Shown here in pieces: positions 39,045-48,596 of a stretch of DNA of 64,000 bases. The translations under genes and the position numbers were made by a program. Within the stretch, counting starts at the first letter, position 1. The number at the start of each line of letters is the position of its first letter. This stretch comes from Escherichia coli. Its GTDB lineage: Bacteria > Pseudomonadota > Gammaproteobacteria > Enterobacterales > Enterobacteriaceae. The notes below the pieces were generated by a model. It had not been told where the DNA came from. It saw nothing but the letters and a program-made list of their open reading frames with translations, and did not search any database. The DNA is taken from NCBI RefSeq assembly GCF_030013595.1, contig NZ_CP122768.1; one strand, 5' to 3'.

Positions 39045-39207
39045 ACAAACATTTCTCAACGTCTACTAAAGTCCATCAAACCCACGAATATCAAGCCTTC
39101 CAGCCATTTTCATAGTTTATTAACGTCTACTCACAACCACCAGAATCTACACACAGAAGTGTATAGTAATGCGTATAGGACAAAATTTATTTTTTGGAGC
39201 TATACAC

Positions 39208-40422
39208 ATGCTGCTTTCAGACCTTGCCATCAGGCGCGCGAAGCCGAAAGAAAAGGCTTATACACTCAATGACGGTAACGGGCTTTCGTTGCTCATTGAG
39301 CCGAACGGTTCGAAAGGGTGGCGACTGCGCTACAGGTTTGCAGGAAAGCCCAAAATGTTGTCGTTGGGTGTGTACCCTGATGTGTCTCTGTCTGATGCCA
39401 GGGCGGCAAGGGATGAGGCTAAAAGGCTTCTTGCTGGTGGTATAAATCCAAGTGAGGCCAGAAAAGCCCAAAAGCGAGAACAGGCGAGCAAATTTGGCAA
39501 TACTTTTGAGGGTATTGCTCGCGAATGGTACGAAAAGCGGATCGACAGGTGGTCATCGTCATACGCCGAGGAAATGATCGAGACGTTTGAAAAAGATGTT
39601 TTTCCGTACATTGGCGGTAGGCCGATCGCAGAAATTAAGCCGATGGAATTGCTGGCGGTTCTTTCCCGTCTTAATGACCGTGGTGCGACTGAAAAATTGC
39701 GTAAGGTTCGCCAGCGATGCGGCGAGGTGTTCCGGTACGCAATCATCACCGGACGCGCCGAATATAATCCAGCCCCTGACCTGGTGAGCGCATTTGCTCC
39801 ACATAAAAAAGAGCATTACGCCTATTTGAAGGCCGACGAACTGCCGGAATTTTTCCGCGTTTTTAATACGTACACCGGAAGCCAGATCGTCAAACTGGCA
39901 ATGCGGCTATTAATTCTGACAGGTGTCAGACCCGGGGAATTACGGCAGGCAGAATGGCAGGAGATCGATTTTGATAATCGTTTGTGGGAAGTGCCTAAAG
40001 AACGAATGAAGATGCGCCGTCCGCATTGTGTGCCATTACCAGAACAGGCGATAAAAATACTGGAGCAGTTAAAAAACATGACAGGCCAGTATCAGTTTAT
40101 TTTCCCCGGTCGTATTCACCACAGTAAGCCAATGAGTGAAATGGCGATGAATGTGCTCATTCGTCGTATCGGCTATGCCGGGCGCGTTACTGGTCATGGA
40201 TTCCGGCACACCATGAGCACCATTTTGCATGAGCAGGGCTATAACACCGCGTGGATAGAGACGCAGCTCGCACACGTCGATAAAAACTCAATTCGTGGCA
40301 CATACAACCATGCGCAATATCTGGATGGTCGCCGGGAGATGCTCCAGTGGTATGCCGACTATATGGATTCGCTCGAGCATGGCGGTAACGTGGTGCATGG
40401 CAAGTTCGGAAAATGTGGATGA
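39208..40422 (+). CDS. int: Tyrosine recombinase, P4-type integrase
   Basis: N-terminus MLLSDLAIRRAKPKEKAYTLNDGNGLSL...WRLRYRFAGKPK and catalytic-region residues (HGFRHT, LAH...RGTY); start after GGAGC. Confidence 0.9.
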   Translation: MLLSDLAIRRAKPKEKAYTLNDGNGLSLLIEPNGSKGWRLRYRFAGKPKMLSLGVYPDVSLSDARAARDEAKRLLAGGINPSEARKAQKREQASKFGNTFEGIAREWYEKRIDRWSSSYAEEMIETFEKDVFPYIGGRPIAEIKPMELLAVLSRLNDRGATEKLRKVRQRCGEVFRYAIITGRAEYNPAPDLVSAFAPHKKEHYAYLKADELPEFFRVFNTYTGSQIVKLAMRLLILTGVRPGELRQAEWQEIDFDNRLWEVPKERMKMRRPHCVPLPEQAIKILEQLKNMTGQYQFIFPGRIHHSKPMSEMAMNVLIRRIGYAGRVTGHGFRHTMSTILHEQGYNTAWIETQLAHVDKNSIRGTYNHAQYLDGRREMLQWYADYMDSLEHGGNVVHGKFGKCG

Positions 40423-40550
40423 CTGGTTGCGTATACAGTAGTAGACTTTGAGCGACGAAAGAAAAGGCTGTGTCTAGGGTCGCTCCCGAAAATCCGTACA
40501 CCTCGACGGACTGGTACAGCCACTACAGTAGAGGACGCTGAGGTGTGCGT

Positions 40551-41348
40551 ATGATTGATATTCATGCCGAATTAAACGAATACAAAAAAGATTTTATTTC
40601 TTTACGTGAATTTCTTGAGGTCGTGCTTAAGGTCGCTGGTGATGATTATGATGTTTCAGATGTCATAACTTGGATACTCAGGAGAATAAGCGGAGAACAT
40701 ATCCGCCTGTACACAGTAAATGAATTTAAGCTGTTGGAATCTTTTTGTAACCCGTATCGGGATGAATTTGATTATGATGTTCTTTATAGAAATCTGAATG
40801 CGGTTCGGAAACGTGGTTGTTTACCTGGTGAGAGGGATGAAAATGGTTTTCTGGTGTCCGGTTATTGGGAAGATCCCGAATTTGAGAACATTGGATTTAT
40901 AAGGGGTGAAATTTTCGCAATTTTTCCCGATGTCCTTGACGCGTTAACGAAGCTGGAAGGCGCTAACTCTTCTGAAAATGACGAGGCACAAGGACGCGAT
41001 ATTGAAAAGAAAGAGTTGCGTACAGAGGATGATTTATTATCCCAAATCGCAATGCTGGAAAAAGAAAACGCAGAGTTAAGGGCAAGGATAGAGCAGTTAG
41101 AGCAAGAGCGCCCGATACACTTATATAAATACTGGGATAAAGACCCATTAGCTAAGGCTATTGAGATTAGAAACAGAGAGTGGGCCAATTACGATCCAGA
41201 AAATGATTTTGCCACCAGGGGAAATCAAGAAGCGATAACCAGGGAGCTTAAGCAGTGGGGGGCAAGTAATGCACTTGCAACGCTCATAGAGAGGACTGCC
41301 TGCCCTATTAACCGAGACAACAGCCAAAAGAACGCAAAGCCGGATTAA
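40551..41348 (+). CDS. Hypothetical protein, AT-rich orphan cargo gene next to the integrase
   Basis: 265-aa ORF behind a GAGG Shine-Dalgarno; central coiled-coil stretch (LSQIAMLEKENAELRARIEQLEQER); visibly lower GC than int; no motif I recognise. Confidence 0.6.
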   Translation: MIDIHAELNEYKKDFISLREFLEVVLKVAGDDYDVSDVITWILRRISGEHIRLYTVNEFKLLESFCNPYRDEFDYDVLYRNLNAVRKRGCLPGERDENGFLVSGYWEDPEFENIGFIRGEIFAIFPDVLDALTKLEGANSSENDEAQGRDIEKKELRTEDDLLSQIAMLEKENAELRARIEQLEQERPIHLYKYWDKDPLAKAIEIRNREWANYDPENDFATRGNQEAITRELKQWGASNALATLIERTACPINRDNSQKNAKPD

Positions 41349-41363
41349 CGCACCATACCGCAT

Positions 41364-41507
41364 ACCCTGAGGGTGATTTACTGTTACCCTGAGGGTATTT
41401 TTTTATCTTCCCCGTCAATTTTACCATCACCCTTAGGGTAGATTTCCTCCCGATTACCATCACCCTTAGGGTTAATTTCCTTCCGGTAACCATTAGGCCT
41501 GAGGGTA
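41364..41507. repeat. Five copies of the palindromic motif CCCT(G/T)AGGGT, including a ~33-bp tandem direct repeat; putative operator upstream of alpA
   Basis: Copies at about 41364, 41386, 41428, 41461 and 41494; unit TTACCATCACCCTTAGGGT(A/T)(G/A)ATTTCCT occurs twice. Confidence 0.6.
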
Positions 41508-41575
41508 TGAAAATATTCGTTATTTCTGTGCCAGGATTACCTCGTCAAATTGAGTAGACGTTATGAGGTAAATAT

Positions 41576-41773
41576 ATGTCAAATACGCTTATTCGTTTAA
41601 CAGAAGTTCAGCGTAGAACTGGATATAGCAAGGCATGGATTTATCGCCTTATGGGGCAAGGTAAATTTCCTGCATCAGTTAAAATTGGCTCGCGAGCTAT
41701 TGCTTTCGTTGAGAGTGAAATTGACGAGTGGATTAATCAGCGTATTGCGGAATCACGCGGAACAGCTACCTGA
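41576..41773 (+). CDS. alpA: AlpA-family phage transcriptional regulator / excisionase-like
   Basis: 65 aa, MSNTLIRLTEVQRRTGYSKAWIYRLMGQGKFPASVKIGSRAIAFVESEIDEWI, the canonical AlpA HTH. Confidence 0.8.
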   Translation: MSNTLIRLTEVQRRTGYSKAWIYRLMGQGKFPASVKIGSRAIAFVESEIDEWINQRIAESRGTAT

Positions 41774-41850
41774 TTAAATGGCTACGGGGCTATTGCCCCC
41801 AGCTATCCACCAGCAAATAAAAGTAACTTAATTCGATAGCAGGAGTTTTT

Positions 41851-42651
41851 ATGAAATTTCCAAAAACGCCCGTACAGGGGCGGGGCTTCGTTCGGCCTGA
41901 AAACCAGAATCTGCAAAATTTCGGCGAAATTATCCCGGTTATTTCCGGCGTTATTGGCGGGAGTGAAACCACTATTGTTAGCGCCAGAGCGTTACATAAG
42001 GCGTTAGGTGTAGGGCGCGTTTTCCGTTCGTGGATCAAGGGGCGCATTGAAGAATACGGGTTCACGGAAGGCGTGGATTATGAGGTTGTTGAATATTTGA
42101 GCCGACCCGATCCGGTGAGCGCAAAATCTCGCCAGCAAACCGCTCTTGAGTACATCATCACAGTGAACATGGCGAAAGAACTGGCGATGGTCGAGCGCAC
42201 CGAACAGGGCCGCGCCGTTCGTCAGTACTTCATCAAATGCGAGGAGGAGCTACACAAGGTTGCGCCTGTTCGTTCCGCAGCGTTACGCCGGGAACTGAAA
42301 GCCCGTATCACCGTTGCCAGTTACTTTAAGCCGATGTGCGCCGCGCTGGAGGCGTACCGGGCTGAACTGGGTAAAAACACGTTCCAGCACCACTACACCA
42401 CGGAAGCCAATATGCTGGCGCGTATCGTGCTGGGTGGCATGACTGCAAAACAGTGGGCGCAGGCGAACGGCATCACAGGCGAACCACGCGACCACATGAG
42501 CACGTTGCAGCTTGAGCACCTTTCTTACCTTGAGCAGAGCAATATCACGCTGATTGAGTTAGGCCAGGACTACCACCAGCGGAAAGCTGAATTAATTCGT
42601 CTTTCGCAGCGTTGGTTAGCCCGTCGCATGGAGGAAAACAGCCATGTGTAA
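41851..42651 (+). CDS. Phage antirepressor-like protein (AntA N-terminal / KilAC-like C-terminal)
   Basis: ARALHKALGVGRVFRSWIKGRIEEYGFTEGVDY and MAKELAMVERTEQGRAVRQYFIKCEE resemble Ant-type antirepressor domains; AGGAG Shine-Dalgarno. Confidence 0.65.
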   Translation: MKFPKTPVQGRGFVRPENQNLQNFGEIIPVISGVIGGSETTIVSARALHKALGVGRVFRSWIKGRIEEYGFTEGVDYEVVEYLSRPDPVSAKSRQQTALEYIITVNMAKELAMVERTEQGRAVRQYFIKCEEELHKVAPVRSAALRRELKARITVASYFKPMCAALEAYRAELGKNTFQHHYTTEANMLARIVLGGMTAKQWAQANGITGEPRDHMSTLQLEHLSYLEQSNITLIELGQDYHQRKAELIRLSQRWLARRMEENSHV

Positions 42652-43278
42652 CGCTCTGACCGTTACAAAAAGAGAAAGCGCCCCGTTGCCGGAGCGCCTT
42701 TGTGAACGAATAGCCTACTGCGCCATATTGCTTACTGTCTACGAGGCAGATTATAGCGTTGTGGTCGCACAGAGTGAAGGCGCTGATCACCGTTACTACA
42801 GCACGCCAGAAATGCAGAATATTTTGCTGCAAAATGCCGTTGGTCACGCCGTCCGGAAAGCAAAAAATTTTGCTGGTGGCGCGACTGATGCGATTTTGTC
42901 AGGTCGCCAGGTGCTGATCAATCTGATGTCTGATTTCGTTCTGGATAAAACAAAGGCGACCGCAGAGAGCCGCCAGTGGAAAAGCTACATACTTGAACGC
43001 ATCACCAACAATGCCACATTTGCGGCTGGTGGGCAATGTGATCAGTCAGATTTGGTTCGTTCCAAGGTTTGCAACGAGAGCTTTTTCCTGTGCTCTTTAA
43101 GGAATTTCTCAAGAGCAAACGAACAAGGTGCGAATCTTTCTGATTCATGTTCATGCGCTATATTTTTGCGTCGTTTCTTACGAGTTGGTGATGGTGTTTT
43201 GGTTGATTCTGTGTCGCTCATGGTGCTGTCCTGTAAAGCAATGCGCCTGCGTTCCTCAAACTATGGCGCTGATAGTGG

Positions 43279-43584
43279 CTATTCCTGCTCTTTGACCTTG
43301 CGTCGCTGGAGTTCTTCACGCGCGACGGTGACGAGTTGCCCGATCTCCTCGGCTGCTTTGACTCCGATTTTTTCCACCTGCGCCAGTGCATCGAGCGAAG
43401 AAACCAGGGGATTTTCTCCTCTTCCTTCTGCCTGGCGCCGGGCGATCTCCCCGCGCATGGCGGTTACTATGAATCCGGCGTTGCTTTCGCCGTCCAGTTT
43501 TACGGATTCCATGCCTTCAATAACATCATGCGGGATCCGAGCTGTCAGTGATTGTGATTTTGCGTTTTTTGAACCTGTAGCCAT
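43279..43584 (-). CDS. Putative small DNA-binding repressor (ribbon-helix-helix-like), divergent from the replication operon
   Basis: 101 aa from the ATG at 43584 behind GAGAGGA (track ORF extends to a TTG at 43599); faces a palindrome-containing intergenic region. Confidence 0.5.
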   Translation of the reverse strand: MATGSKNAKSQSLTARIPHDVIEGMESVKLDGESNAGFIVTAMRGEIARRQAEGRGENPLVSSLDALAQVEKIGVKAAEEIGQLVTVAREELQRRKVKEQE

Positions 43585-43780
43585 CTGTAATCCTCTCAAT
43601 GAAAGTGTAAGACAATATACACATAAAAAGTCTTACATAAAAGCATTGACATGTAAGCCACCCACAAATAAAGTTACTTACACCTTGTTAATGCAAGGTG
43701 CAGAAACGACGAAACCCGGCAGTGCGCGAACACTAACCGGGCTTCTAACCACCAACGATAGAGAGCTTATCGAGGTAGCT

Positions 43781-43984
43781 ATGTTAAATCATACCACACA
43801 CCCGCAAGGGCGGGACTCGCACAACCTGAATAAATACATCTGGCGTTTTATCGCCCTGAGTACGGCACAACCGCGCGTAATTCACATCGAGGCCACCAGC
43901 GAACAGGAAGCGCGTCAGCAATCTCCTGATGGCTGCGTGATGGTATTCGCTGCCCGTATTCGCCAGGAGGTGCACCATGCATAA
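43781..43984 (+). CDS. Hypothetical small protein (67 aa), first gene of the rightward operon
   Basis: ATG behind GAGGTAG; stop overlaps the start of the next gene; it is the C-terminal segment of track ORF 42644..43984. Confidence 0.4.
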   Translation: MLNHTTHPQGRDSHNLNKYIWRFIALSTAQPRVIHIEATSEQEARQQSPDGCVMVFAARIRQEVHHA

Positions 43985-44342
43985 CCTGTCAATTTCTGAC
44001 CTTAACAGCATTCAGTTTGACGAGAAATTTACCGGGCAGCTACTGGTCCATGTGGAGAACGGGCGCATAGTGCGTAATTACAACCTGCCGGATGGTGCAA
44101 TTGCCGGAAGCGTTGAAGCATTGCTGGAACTGGCAGAACGTGCGCGACTGATTAAGCCGTTAACGAGCCATCACGATGATGATCTGCATTTTACCGGACG
44201 CATGGTGAGTCACTACGAAAACGGTGTCGAGGTATCCCGCGAACGTCTGCGTGATGATTGCTGTTTCGGCACACTGCCGGAATTTATCGAATTGCTGACC
44301 GATTGCGGTTATCAGGTAATTCAGAGCAAGACGCAGGAGTAA
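43977..44342 (+). CDS. Hypothetical protein (121 aa)
   Basis: ORF coupled to the upstream and downstream genes; no recognisable motif. Confidence 0.5.
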   Translation: MHNLSISDLNSIQFDEKFTGQLLVHVENGRIVRNYNLPDGAIAGSVEALLELAERARLIKPLTSHHDDDLHFTGRMVSHYENGVEVSRERLRDDCCFGTLPEFIELLTDCGYQVIQSKTQE

Positions 44343-44348
44343 AAAACC

Positions 44349-44639
44349 ATGAAAAAGAAAAATTCTGGCTTTACTGCCAGCGGCCCCGCTCGGCCTGAAA
44401 TCAGACACGGCGATATTTACCGCGACACCAGACGCGGGGGACGAGTGGTTATTCGTCACGTTACGCCAGGCAATATCACCTACCGCCGCGAGGCTTACGA
44501 ATATGACTGCGTAATGCCGCGCCGTCAGTTTGAGCGTGATTTTATTCTGGTGGAAAACAAACAACAGGCGGTGGCGAGACGTGCAGCCACGAATATTAAA
44601 AAAATCCGGGCAATGTTGGTTGCGGGAGGTAAGAAGTGA
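44349..44639 (+). CDS. Hypothetical protein (96 aa)
   Basis: AGGAG Shine-Dalgarno; stop overlaps the GTG start of the primase gene. Confidence 0.5.
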   Translation: MKKKNSGFTASGPARPEIRHGDIYRDTRRGGRVVIRHVTPGNITYRREAYEYDCVMPRRQFERDFILVENKQQAVARRAATNIKKIRAMLVAGGKK

Positions 44640-46384
44640 AAAACGCACCGAATTTGAAATATCAGCCGAAGGATAAATTCACTGAGGTTATCATTTTTGC
44701 CGGGACGGATGCTTACGCCCATGCCCAACACTGGATTGAAAGCGAAGGACGAAAACATGGCGATAACGTGCCACCCGTTTATCTGGGGCCAAAGCAACTG
44801 GCAGACCTGGCGAATATCCGCATTGTCGACGATGAACGCCGCTTTGCGCGTGTTTATATCGCGGGGGAGATAGAGCCAATCCAGATCAACGCTATCGCTG
44901 AAAAACTGGCGCTGGCTGGCGTACAGGAGGCGAAATTATACAAAGGCATCACCGACCGGGAGCCGGAGAACTGGCGCGATTACCTGCAACGGTTACGCGA
45001 ACAGGCTGAGCGCGGAGAAATTCTGTCAGGAAGGACCGAGAAAAAACACAAAATATCTCTTTCCAGAATGGCGGACAGCCAAAGGGCAAAACTTTTAGCT
45101 GAACGATTTCAGGATGTAGCAATGAATCAGGAGAGTGAGGTTGTCCACGTCTGGCGCGATGATTTTTGGGTTCCGGTAAGCACACTGGATCTTAGTCGTG
45201 AAATGGTGGCTATTTACGAAGAAAACGGAACAGCGTTTAGCCGGAGAGCAATAAGCAATGCAGTGGATGCTTTAAAAGTTATGGCCAGGCCAATGGGGGA
45301 GCCGTCAGGTGATTTATTGCCGTTCGCTAATGGCGTGTTTGACCTGAAAACTGGCGAATTTTCCCCGCACTCGCTGGATAACTGGATCACCACGCATAAC
45401 GGCATTGAGTACACGCCACCAGCACCAGGGGAGAACATCCGCGACAACGCGCCAAACTTTCATAAATGGCTTGATCACGCTGCAGGAAAAGACCCGCGAA
45501 AGATGATGCGTATATGCGCTGCGCTGTACATGATTATGGCTAACCGGTACGACTGGCAAATGTTTATTGAGGCCACAGGAGACGGCGGGAGCGGCAAGAG
45601 CACATTTACGCACATAGCCACCCTTCTGGCAGGGAAACAGAACACGGTAAGCGCCGAAATGACATCGCTTGATGATGCTGGCGGGCGTGCACAGGTTGTC
45701 GGAAGTCGTCTTATTGTCCTGACAGACCAGCCGAAATATACAGGCGAAGGATCGGGAATCAAGAAAATAACTGGCGGCGACCCCGTGGAAATTAACCCGA
45801 AATATGAGAAGCGTTTCACAGCAATTATCAGGGCTGTCGTGCTGGCAACAAACAACGTGCCGATGATATTCACCGAACGGGCCGGAGGCGTTGCACGTCG
45901 ACGTGTAATTTTTCAGTTCGATAATATTGTAAGGGAGGCCGAAAAGGATAAAGAATTACCGCAAAAGATAGCGGCAGAAATACCTGTCATTATTCGTCGA
46001 CTGCTTACTAACTTTTCAGATCCAGAAAAAGCACGAGAATTATTGCTTGATCAGCGTGACGGTGCCGAAGCTCTGAAAATAAAACAGGAAACTGATCCTG
46101 TCATTGGGTTATGTGCGGCGCTTGCATTTCTTGACGAACCGCATGGAATGATGATGGGAGGCGGTAAGAGAACAGTTGACCTTAACCCACGTACAAGTCT
46201 GTACAGGCTTTATCTTGCCTTTATGGAGTACATAGGCAAAGAAGAAAAATTAAGTGTTAATGATTTTGGTAAGGCCATGAAGGCGGCTGCAAGAGAATAT
46301 GGAGCTGAATATCTGACCAGAGGTTTTAAAGGACGAACACAAACTAACGTTATAAGAACGGAGAGAACCGAGGAATTTTTATAA
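44636..46384 (+). CDS. Phage/plasmid primase-helicase (P4-alpha / PICI Pri-Rep type, SF3 P-loop)
   Basis: Walker A GDGGSGKST and Walker B-like LIVLTDQP; GTG start behind GGAGG; iterons immediately downstream. Confidence 0.85.
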   Translation: MKNAPNLKYQPKDKFTEVIIFAGTDAYAHAQHWIESEGRKHGDNVPPVYLGPKQLADLANIRIVDDERRFARVYIAGEIEPIQINAIAEKLALAGVQEAKLYKGITDREPENWRDYLQRLREQAERGEILSGRTEKKHKISLSRMADSQRAKLLAERFQDVAMNQESEVVHVWRDDFWVPVSTLDLSREMVAIYEENGTAFSRRAISNAVDALKVMARPMGEPSGDLLPFANGVFDLKTGEFSPHSLDNWITTHNGIEYTPPAPGENIRDNAPNFHKWLDHAAGKDPRKMMRICAALYMIMANRYDWQMFIEATGDGGSGKSTFTHIATLLAGKQNTVSAEMTSLDDAGGRAQVVGSRLIVLTDQPKYTGEGSGIKKITGGDPVEINPKYEKRFTAIIRAVVLATNNVPMIFTERAGGVARRRVIFQFDNIVREAEKDKELPQKIAAEIPVIIRRLLTNFSDPEKARELLLDQRDGAEALKIKQETDPVIGLCAALAFLDEPHGMMMGGGKRTVDLNPRTSLYRLYLAFMEYIGKEEKLSVNDFGKAMKAAAREYGAEYLTRGFKGRTQTNVIRTERTEEFL

Positions 46385-47108: not shown

Positions 47109-47495
47109 AAAGTGAGGAGCAAAAGTGAGGATGGCGGGTAATTTAACAAAAAATCAACGCCACTCCTCACTTTCTCACCTGTATATAGGTCAAAAAGTGA
47201 GGAGTTAAAAACACATTGCAAAACAACAGATTACAACAATAAAGAAAACGACTGAGGAGCAGAACAAGAATAATAAAAAGTGAGGAACAAAAGTGAGGAA
47301 TGGTGAGTTAATAGAAATGAGGTAATAAAAATAACAGGTAGGTTAAAAAACACACCATGCAAGATATTAACTAAAACTTAACTATTTACCTCACTTTTGC
47401 GTATATATAAGGATTAAAAAGTGAGTACTTAAAAATACATTTAAAATCATATTGTTATTAACTTCATAAATTTTCACTGTGCAGCAGGTGAGGAA
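47107..47495. repeat. AT-rich non-coding array of at least 8 copies of AAAGTGAGGA (both orientations)
   Basis: Copies at about 47107, 47121, 47161 (inverted), 47193, 47276, 47289, 47388 (inverted), 47417 and 47487; no ORF of 60 aa or more. Confidence 0.6.
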
Positions 47496-47574
47496 TTAAA
47501 AAATCAGGAATGTTAAAAATGAAAACAGAATGTTGTGTCAGTGCCGTTGGGCAACGTAGCAACCAGTAAAAACG

Positions 47575-48117
47575 ATGGGGCAAAGCATGACTAAGCTGAC
47601 CATTAACAGAAAACCGAAAGGCATTTACGGCACGCCGCAGAAAACGACGCAGGCGGCGCAGGAGCAGGATAAAACCACATCGGCGCATAAAGTGATGCCC
47701 GGTAACCAGAAAGCGCAGCAGAAGCCCACAGGGGCGACACCGTGGCGGCATATGACCAAACGCCAGCGCAAAAACCGCAGGCGCGTTAACCGCCTCACTG
47801 AGTTGTGGCCTGAATTATTCAGCCGGGAAGCACCGAAGCCGCTTAAGGTGGGGATATTCGACGACCTGATGCAGGATCTCGCCGTCAGGGGGCTGGCATT
47901 CGGTCCAGGGGCATTGCGTGCGACGCTGGCATCTTATGCGCAGTGTCCGCGCTATTACCGCGCCTTAATGGCTGGTGGGGTACGCTACGACCTGAAAGGC
48001 CAGCCGTGCGGCGAGGTGACACCACAGGAACAACAGGACGCCGAAACGCGGCTGGTGGCGCTGAATGAGAAGCGCAAACGTCAGCGCCGGGCAGCAAAGG
48101 AGAAAACAGGCGCATGA
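47575..48117 (+). CDS. ProQ/FinO-domain RNA-binding protein
   Basis: LTELWPELFSREAPKPLKVGIFDDLMQDL...RATLASYAQCPRYYRALMAGGVRYDLKGQPCGEV parallels the recalled ProQ N-terminal domain (RFPHCF...RPLKIGIFQDL...RVDLDGNPCGE). Confidence 0.7.
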   Translation: MGQSMTKLTINRKPKGIYGTPQKTTQAAQEQDKTTSAHKVMPGNQKAQQKPTGATPWRHMTKRQRKNRRRVNRLTELWPELFSREAPKPLKVGIFDDLMQDLAVRGLAFGPGALRATLASYAQCPRYYRALMAGGVRYDLKGQPCGEVTPQEQQDAETRLVALNEKRKRQRRAAKEKTGA

Positions 48118-48405: not shown

Positions 48406-48430
48406 AGCCGGGATTTTTCCCGGCTTTTTT
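48406..48430 (+). terminator. Rho-independent terminator after the PerC-like gene
   Basis: AGCCGGG-attttt-CCCGGCT followed by a T6 run. Confidence 0.75.
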
Positions 48431-48442
48431 GTGCCAGTAAAA

Positions 48443-48477
48443 AGCCCGCAGCCAGAAGTGTTGCGGGCTTTGTTTTT
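48443..48477 (+). terminator. Second tandem rho-independent terminator
   Basis: AGCCCGCA...TGCGGGCT followed by TTGTTTTT. Confidence 0.65.
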
Positions 48478-48596
48478 CAGGTGATTGAAGTCAATGGGAA
48501 GAACGCGATCATCATGCGTTATCGCTTCATAAATTGCAACGATGTAGATCGTTATTTCAGTTTGTGCAATCATAATCATTGTTTTGTTCAGGAGAT

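Follow-up and report, generated by a model that had tools for sequence, protein, structure and literature searches.

Satellite phage P4 and the phage-inducible chromosomal islands (PICIs) of Gram-negative bacteria are the described systems closest to the control region reported here, which lies in a 64,000-nt stretch of Escherichia coli DNA (the window) and joins a divergently transcribed candidate repressor gene (ylcI) with a 67-aa Kil/Icd-like gene (kil) nested at the 3′ end of a 446-codon open reading frame (ORF). According to the account of Forti et al. 1999 given in PMC10111431, P4 has a constitutive promoter inside eta, the CI RNA ends the resulting transcript early, and Kil is the truncated form of Eta. 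Full-length Eta is described there as being translated only from an upstream late promoter, coupled to an alpA homolog, and its translation prevents termination. P4 eta has been assigned to the Bro network, and the "Bro zones" of PICIs carry immunity RNAs (PMC10111431). The founding paper on the Gram-negative islands left open whether they have a master repressor (PMC6092414). In the P4 sequence, eta is a 199-codon frame that encloses kil, and its ATG overlaps (ATGA) the stop codon of vis (ORF88, alpA-like).

We propose that this control region is probably an on/off switch with which a phage satellite of Gram-negative bacteria, a PICI/P4-like island, sets immunity and commitment. Its layout is likely that of a P4-like eta/kil switch in which immunity is provided by a protein and a cis-antisense RNA, which would make it a new variant of a known arrangement. 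Direct support comes from family memberships, co-variation of operators with the repressor, covariation in the RNA, promoter conservation, and open-frame statistics. The literature searched contained no account of a divergent YlcI-type repressor, of its operator types, of the antisense RNA, or of a conserved frame overlapping genes in antisense.

Results

A candidate repressor with lineage-specific operators

A preliminary description of this DNA had noted a divergent control region in which a repressor-like gene faces an operator-like inverted repeat, and both elements are present. The gene, ylcI, encodes a member of the YlcI/YnfO family (NF041551, 71.1 bits against a cut-off of 30, E 5.7e-20) that also matches phrog_6522 over its full length. 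Among 51 diverged relatives, the ylcI frame had the lowest ratio of nonsynonymous to synonymous substitution (dN/dS), 0.10-0.26, and the plus-strand frame that shares its third positions had 0.20-0.31. The AlphaFold2 model of YlcI has an extended N-terminus, helices at residues 19-28 and 35-52, and a long C-terminal helix (pLDDT 85-88). No support for a ribbon-helix-helix (RHH) fold was obtained from Pfam RHH models, a profile search of PDB sequences, or Foldseek. With hhalign, residues 9-32 could be matched in register to P22 Arc, over its DNA-reading strand and its first helix (E 5e-4, probability 30%).

The inverted repeat consists of two perfect 8-nt arms, 43606-43613 (TGTAAGAC) and 43630-43637 (GTCTTACA), separated by a 16-nt spacer; the repeat had been placed at about 43606-43629, and its second arm in fact lies just past that end. 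A second TGTAAG/CTTACA pair is found at 43652-43657 and 43677-43682, so that the whole unit is duplicated at a spacing of 45-46 nt. The resulting four half-sites bracket both divergent promoters, and on the rightward promoter they also cover the -35 and the +1. Of the 18 TGTAAG copies in the 64-kb window, four fall within 77 bp in the operator set, a clustering with a chance of ~1e-5 or less by a rough Poisson estimate. Sites of the Ogr/delta type (TGT-N12-ACA) numbered 13 in the window against 14.9 expected and were thus uninformative.

Comparison of related loci distinguished no fewer than 14 types of control region. The repeated motif is specific to the type (for example TGTAAGAC, GTGTGTTTCA, TGTGATTCA, GTGGCTGACA, TGCAAGTCAC, and GGTATTCA), and in every type it flanks the -35 TTGACN and a +1 of the form ...CACC from the same positions. 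Residues 10-15 of YlcI likewise differ by type (QSLTAR, QLTTVR, KQISIR, KKLEAR, QQKTAR, QQLNAR, and others), and the operator motif changes together with them across the at least 14 types; where strand sequences are identical or nearly so, the motif cores are also the same or very alike. This co-variation of operators and strand residues is the strongest argument that YlcI acts as a repressor, and we treat the protein as a candidate Arc-like ribbon-helix-helix immunity repressor.

The rightward promoter, which we call PLE-like after its P4 counterpart, keeps its -35 TTGAC in the same reading phase in all 14 types compared. On the opposite strand, we infer that TATATT serves as the -10 of the ylcI-orf59 promoter, where a (C)A(A/G)TATAC(A) motif is kept in most types; a consensus scan did not call this promoter because it lacks a good -35.

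The second gene of the minus-strand operon, orf59, had been put forward in the preliminary description as a 59-aa ORF at 43041-43220. It is a real, under-annotated gene as judged from its conservation, with coordinates shifted by one base (43042-43221). The product matches phrog_21027 (E 1.5e-15) and is annotated in strain cq9 as WP_276569331.1. A GGA lies 7 nt ahead of the ATG, which is kept in 45 of 46 variants; the Shine-Dalgarno (SD) sequence and the core ERFAPCxFALEKFLKE are also kept, and the termini vary. There were 29 clusters of homologs, and all named matches came from the genus Escherichia and were "hypothetical." Many ylcI loci lack the gene, among them each of the nine examined from other genera. 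The intrinsic terminator of the operon falls within a DNA block kept in 94-133 related loci. A second minus-strand terminator lies at 42700-42675, and neither of the two has a T-run on the plus strand.

A Kil/Icd-like gene and a predicted cis-antisense RNA over its leader

The last 67 codons of the long ORF encode a Kil/Icd-like protein, a putative cell-division inhibitor or toxin. This assignment rests on NF033153, which gave 71.6 bits (cut-off 25, E 3.9e-20) for the window gene and 76.1 bits (E 1.6e-21) for P4 Kil (65 aa, ORF taken from the P4 record). BLASTP barely connects the two proteins, and a tblastn search of a phage collection with Kil returned one record and missed P4; a hidden Markov model is thus needed to link them. 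The PHROG tag "transcriptional repressor" carried by the Kil/Icd-like family probably echoes an old "cI protein" annotation of the kil ORF in P4.

On the strand opposite kil, we predict a cis-antisense small RNA complementary to the whole 5′ untranslated region (UTR) and SD sequence of the short kil transcript. In all 42 unique leader variants, the minus strand folded better than the plus strand (mean minimum free energy, -35.8 versus -22.7 kcal/mol), and the linker UGGUUAGA was invariant. Many stem pairs are G.U on the minus strand and correspond to C.A mismatches on the plus strand. The 5′ stem occurs as CGAUA/UAUCG, CGUUA/UAACG, UGUUA/UAACA, and AACG/CGUU. In one alignment, which carries the caveat of having been fitted to the RNA model, double-sided changes were found in 12 of 27 pairs and 95% of cells were paired; slid controls gave 35-46%, and this result was not reached in any of 500 shuffles. 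In a hand-made alignment, double-sided changes occurred in five pairs (13 of 500 shuffles reach five), and no shuffle out of 500 reached the covariation score.

A covariance model (R1) built from one leader type scored 93.5 bits on the window and gave a single match, always on the strand of ylcI, for each ylcI-type locus that was searched (eight genera), including loci of Photorhabdus, Serratia, Yersinia, and Xenorhabdus (42-99 bits). Loci that lack orf59 still combine ylcI with kil and keep the predicted antisense RNA. A TAnnnT hexamer is placed exactly 7 nt upstream of the modeled 5′ end in 28 of 28 lineages, in the forms TATGAT, TATAAT, TATAGT, TATGCT, and TAGACT. It lies within kil, and in some Kil variants a His-to-Tyr change converts TATGAT into TATAAT. 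A weak R1 match downstream of the PerC-like gene (48418-48480, plus strand, 17.5 bits, E 0.056) is probably due to chance.

Two known RNAs were considered for this position. SymR (Rfam RF01809) matched minus-strand positions 43708-43780 over its full length with 30.8 bits, and the homologous place in three further loci (L003, L007, and L009 of our comparison set) with 30-35.9 bits. These scores are below the gathering threshold of 61, R1 had no match in K-12 symR (L169) at E<=1, and identity with SymR was rejected. A P4-type CI/C4 RNA in the leader was also rejected. Rfam searches for C4 and isrK found none in the window (E<=1) or in 14 ylcI-type loci, with P4 as a positive control scoring 74.9 bits for C4 and 60.8 bits for isrK; R1 in turn found nothing in P4.

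An open frame conserved without amino acid constraint

The long ORF runs antisense through orf59 and ylcI. Its ATG overlaps the stop codon of the AntA/Bro-type gene antA (ATGTGTAA), and its stop overlaps the ATG of orf121 (ATGCATAA). As reported earlier, its middle part is rich in Ser and Cys (16% and 5% of residues 134-379, the part antisense to orf59 and ylcI). Public annotations of the frame vary: 67 aa in cq9, where PGAP calls the kil form; 172 aa in ETEC1732; and elsewhere the full 446 aa.

Openness of the kil frame upstream of kil was examined in about 80 unique sequences from 166 loci. In about 60 of these, no stop interrupted it anywhere in the intergenic region or in the ylcI antisense (nor in the orf59 antisense where present), with open lengths of 200-680 codons. 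The offset between the start of the kil alignment and the ylcI start took nine values (191, 194, 197, 200, 212, 224, 227, 356, and 374), all of them 2 mod 3, and indels in the frame came in multiples of 3. Across 14 operator types, which are unrelated in sequence, the kil frame had 0 stops and the other two frames had 2-13, the probability of no stop being 0.004-0.03 per type in shuffles. For an unbiased sample, loci from nine species in eight genera were retrieved by ylcI similarity only, regardless of the long ORF. The kil frame was stop-free over the ~200-nt intergenic region (52-65% AT) in eight of these nine loci (P = 0.009-0.035 per locus by dinucleotide shuffles), the other two frames contained 1-10 stops, and in six of the nine the frame was open for >850 nt upstream of the kil ATG.

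Within ylcI, the antisense frame was open in 53 of 54 unique coding sequences. A stop in the long frame would require NNY-TAY or NNT-CAN in ylcI; hence, we used synonymous resampling with protein and codon usage fixed, which gave an open antisense frame with P = 0.15-0.45 per sequence. The alternative that the long frame is the codon-for-codon antisense of ylcI, with stops arising from TTA, CTA, and TCA, was rejected because the frame is offset; these codons are common in ylcI (32 per 1000). In most lineages, the frame starts at, or at most 12 nt from, the stop of the upstream gene (GTGA, ATGA, or TGATG overlaps; gaps of at most 12 nt), and in one locus (L105) it is fused to an N-terminal fragment of AntA. 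Between antA and kil, all calls of intrinsic terminators fall on the minus strand, save one weak plus-strand match at 43406-43420 in the ylcI antisense.

The encoded peptide behaves differently from the frame. In the intergenic part, dN/dS of the long frame was 1.1-1.4, indicating no amino acid constraint. The N-terminal parts are unrelated between genera and lineages, and no Pfam domain was found in the long ORF of the window. A separate plus-strand gene within 42652-43041 was rejected, as no frame was constrained over 42900-43035 (dN/dS 0.6-1.0); the patch upstream of it is hypervariable. The preliminary description had doubted that the long ORF is one real protein, and the lack of amino acid constraint agrees; its further view of the middle as chance antisense sequence does not hold up against a frame that is kept open and coupled at its start. 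It had also held that homology to the full 446-aa product would speak for such a protein. Formally, this homology exists (1,760 homologs, many of 335-533 aa, which NCBI names "Icd-like"), but it is forced by the antisense genes and is therefore no proof of a functional polypeptide. From these sequence comparisons, we consider it likely that the upstream part of the ORF is not chance antisense junk and that its openness, not its peptide, is under selection.

Some loci carry additional coding sequence in the kil frame. In L098 and L102, ~100-160 extra codons separate the first ~25 kil codons from a second Icd-like C-terminus, and in L040 and L111, ~50 codons follow an alternative ATG in the kil-frame ORF; the frame is open in all four.

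Genes around the control region and their distribution

The features of the segment are listed in Table 1. The int-alpA RNA sits between int and the 267-aa ORF and not directly before alpA, and the RNA also occurs in L040, L043, and L111. The 227-bp gap between the 267-aa ORF and alpA contains five copies of the palindrome ACCCT(G/T)AGGGT (41358-41506), which could be sites for a regulator of an upstream PLL-like promoter or could be iterons.

Table 1. Features of the satellite segment and its control region (window coordinates)
Feature	Position	Strand	Remarks
P4-type integrase gene (int)	within 39169-46384	+	first gene of segment
int-alpA RNA (RF02996)	40467-40534	+	Rfam, 45.5 bits; gathering score 35.8
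267-aa ORF	between int-alpA RNA and alpA	+	
alpA	41576-41773	+	
AntA/Bro-type gene (antA)	41851-42651	+	PF08346, E 2.4e-23; PGAP annotation
Eta-like long ORF, 446 codons	42644-43984	+	encloses orf59 and ylcI (antisense), promoters, operators, antisense-RNA gene, and kil
Possible second small RNA	42675-42778	-	promoter 42778-42750: TTCACT, 17-nt spacer, TATAAT
Intrinsic terminator of ylcI-orf59 operon	42974-42955	-	GGCGGCTCTCTGCGGTCGCC then TTTGTTTTAT
orf59, 59 aa, small basic protein	43042-43221	-	second gene of minus operon; phrog_21027
ylcI, YlcI/YnfO-family protein, 101 aa from ATG	43279-43584	-	NF041551; PGAP
SD of ylcI, GAGG	reverse complement of 43592-43595	-	
Putative operator set, four TGTAAG/CTTACA half-sites	43606-13, 43630-37, 43652-59, 43675-82		bracket both divergent promoters
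Putative -10 of ylcI-orf59 promoter, TATATT	43619-43614	-	read from sequence; predicted transcription start site (TSS) ~43606
PLE-like sigma-70 promoter for short kil transcript	43646-43674	+	TTGACA, 17-nt spacer, TAAAGT; predicted TSS ~43681
Predicted cis-antisense small RNA, ~80 nt	43780 to ~43700	-	5′ hairpin, linker UGGUUAGA, terminator hairpin, U-rich tail
Extended -10 promoter of antisense RNA, TGGTATGAT	43796-43788	-	inside kil codons 3-6; predicted TSS 43780
Kil/Icd-like gene (kil), 67 aa	43781-43984	+	nested at 3′ end of long ORF; SD GAGG 43771-43774
orf121	43977-44342	+	matches phrog_340 and phrog_2512, both without assigned function
DUF4222 gene	between orf121 and primase gene	+	
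P4-alpha-type primase gene	44636-46384	+	

A second minus-strand small RNA, antisense to codons ~6-33 of the long ORF, is tentatively placed at 42675-42778. The region ends in the strong 11-bp terminator at 42700-42675 with the T-run CTCTTTTTGT, and its fold has -26.9 kcal/mol (z -2.5). Relatives retain the hexamers of the promoter (TTCACA with TAAAAT or TACAAT); hypervariability is seen in the spacer between them and over the first ~40 nt of the transcript.

Near-identical islands in complete E. coli genomes carry the same annotation, followed by ProQ/FinO-family and PerC-family genes. In the window, the ProQ/FinO-family gene lies at ~47465-47995 on the plus strand (mapped from L001 9866-10396). 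ProQ/FinO-family chaperones act on cis-antisense RNAs with terminator hairpins, and the kil antisense RNA may have such a partner in the island protein. PADLOC returned no match for the products of ylcI, orf59, kil, orf121, or the DUF4222 gene.

In a genome that shares the int-alpA-antA side of the window, the island adjoins tRNA-Gly next to actS. The locus thus has the order int-alpA-(Bro)-primase at a specific attachment site, as expected of a Gram-negative PICI, and EcCIMP1, a relative of the island, is mobilized by phage Kapi1 (PMC11773190). The 1.4-kb control region was matched in 1,437 of 5,426 complete E. coli genomes, and the 101-aa form of ylcI in at least 449 of them. Overall, the control region occurs in eight genera.

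Discussion

The arrangement suggests how the switch might operate. In the quiescent island, a YlcI-family Arc-like repressor would be made from the minus strand together with the 59-aa protein and, on the four half-sites, would throttle both the rightward PLE-like promoter and its own. A leaky rightward transcript starting at ~43681 would have its 5′ UTR and ribosome binding site covered by the antisense RNA, made constitutively, leaving the putatively toxic Kil/Icd-like peptide untranslated; the untranslated transcript would in turn be open to Rho-dependent polarity, which would keep orf121, the DUF4222 gene, and the primase gene off. Upon induction, by analogy with PLL and eta of P4, transcription would come from the alpA-antA operon upstream, and ribosomes would pass from antA straight through the 446-codon frame into kil and then the replication genes. 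Translated without a break over the long frame, the induced transcript would be insensitive to the antisense RNA and Rho, and convergent transcription would silence the repressor operon. Selection would act on the openness of the frame and not on the peptide sequence. In its boldest form, which we offer tentatively and hold a little less probable than its opposite, the proposal is that a frame of at least 400 codons serves purely as a ribosome track and that a three-layer immunity, consisting of a repressor with at least 14 specificities, an anti-Kil RNA, and an Eta-like bypass, operates in many Gram-negative PICI/P4-like satellites.

Several points weigh against a conserved P4-like switch. 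In about one-fourth of the unique E. coli variants, a shift of 1-2 nt ends the long frame, so the in-frame fusion to Kil is dispensable; in all but one of these variants, the frame ends ~20 nt ahead of the kil ATG, at position 172-178 of ~197. Stops further upstream are found in L110, L161, and L146. Phage_ASH is absent from the window ORF and from the two other-genus versions tested, unlike P4 Eta, and no upstream late promoter was identified. The related loci are mosaic, so the counted variants are not fully independent. Finally, that YlcI binds DNA, that the RNAs are expressed, that Rho is involved, and that the long frame is translated are in silico predictions.

The lost fusions are also what one would expect if the upstream 380 codons were a functionless shadow ORF, left open by ancestry and antisense composition, and the 67-aa gene alone were real. 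A dN/dS of at least 1 in the intergenic part, the antisense-like composition of the peptide, N-termini unrelated among genera, the missing Pfam domains, and the inconsistent PGAP calls (67, 172, or 446 aa) agree with this explanation. We nevertheless consider it unlikely, since the breaks lie close together, no more than ~20 nt from the kil ATG, and are not spread along the region, and since the frame is open in eight of nine species and across 14 unrelated operator types, with a chance of 0.004-0.035 per locus, at places where the other two frames are full of stops. Composition and ancestry would also have to account for a phase kept across nine offset classes by indels in multiples of 3 and for a start coupled to the upstream stop.

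The opposite explanation, that the ORF encodes a genuine multi-domain protein of the Ash/Eta type or the Bro network with a C-terminal Icd domain and a functional polypeptide, is given little credence here. Neither Phage_ASH nor another domain was found in the window ORF or in versions from other genera, the N-terminal parts show no similarity between lineages, and the intergenic part is free of amino acid constraint. Hundreds of database proteins of 335-533 aa do derive from the frame, one of them named "ash family." The middle of the ORF is determined by the genes on the other strand, and it is their frame that is the better conserved. The remaining points in favor of a protein function are the fusion to the AntA fragment in L105, the place of P4 eta in the Bro network (PMC10111431), and the match of P4 Eta to Pfam Phage_ASH (PF10554, 82.4 bits, residues 22-146). 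PF10554 spans PLE, seqA, and the CI RNA of P4, and its conservation may thus reflect RNA and promoter constraint and not a protein domain. For the minus-strand operon, we hardly credit an addiction module in which an RHH antitoxin is paired with a small basic toxin and the repeats are autoregulatory only. An RHH-like first gene, a small second gene, and repeats over the operon's own promoter would suit a toxin-antitoxin pair. The presumed toxin gene orf59, however, is confined to Escherichia among named matches and missing from many ylcI loci, including the nine from other genera, in which the ylcI/kil pairing and the antisense RNA persist; half-sites also occupy the -35 and +1 of the rightward promoter, and neither PADLOC nor Pfam gave a toxin match.

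An immunity switch built from a repressor, its operators, and an antisense RNA would offer concrete candidates that make the master repressor question of PMC6092414 testable, and the three-layer immunity, if true, would answer whether Gram-negative PICIs have such a repressor. The locus would also be a clean example from nature of a frame that, over a pair of antisense genes, is selected for being open and not for the peptide it encodes. As such, it bears on the debate over long antisense overlapping ORFs and on gene calling, which here yields 67, 172, or 446 aa.

Comparison with known systems

The minus-strand side of the locus recalls Arc and Mnt of the phage P22 immI region. In YlcI, a predicted N-terminal strand-helix-helix pattern falls in register with the DNA-reading strand of Arc, variable strand residues are matched by variable operators, and short inverted repeats overlap the promoters. 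It differs in that the profile match is weak, that no Pfam RHH or structural match was obtained, and that the protein, which NCBI places in YlcI/YnfO, carries an additional long helix at the C-terminus in its 101-aa form. The predicted antisense RNA resembles SymR of the SymR/SymE type I toxin-antitoxin system: both are cis-antisense RNAs of ~77-80 nt with two hairpins and a U-rich end, both start at or just inside the start codon of the target and cover its SD and 5′ UTR, and sub-threshold Rfam matches of 30-36 bits fall at the same place in four loci. The target here is a Kil/Icd peptide and not the AbrB-fold SymE, and homology of the two RNAs is unproven.

With the Gram-negative PICIs EcCICFT073 and EcCIMP1 (zones Integration/Bro/Replication/Late), the island shares its gene set (int, alpA, AntA/Bro, Icd/"Ash"-like, primase, and PerC-like), its place beside a tRNA gene, and its size and order (PMC11773190, PMC10111431). 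It differs from them by the divergent repressor operon with lineage-specific operators.

The likeness to P4 extends over the whole plus strand. The two Kil proteins share one Icd-like family (NF033153); in both elements, kil forms the 3′ end of a longer ORF in its own frame, which begins ahead of the internal promoter; the start of that ORF is coupled to the stop of a preceding alpA/Bro-type gene (antA here, vis in P4); the immunity determinants lie inside the long ORF; and the kil stop and the start of the following gene overlap by 8 nt (ATGCATAA here, GTGCGTAA in P4 kil/epsilon) in an operon that runs on to a P4-alpha-type primase. Through this overlap, orf121 is the positional analogue of P4 epsilon, which functions in helper derepression. 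The differences are that sid, psu, and delta genes were not seen in annotated close relatives, that the long ORF is 2-2.5 times longer than eta and has no Phage_ASH domain, and that no CI RNA or seqA is present. In their place are a divergent operon with a candidate protein repressor, antisense inside the long ORF, and a predicted cis-antisense RNA. The RNA immunity of P4 appears to have been swapped for a protein and a cis-antisense RNA within the same eta/kil scaffold.

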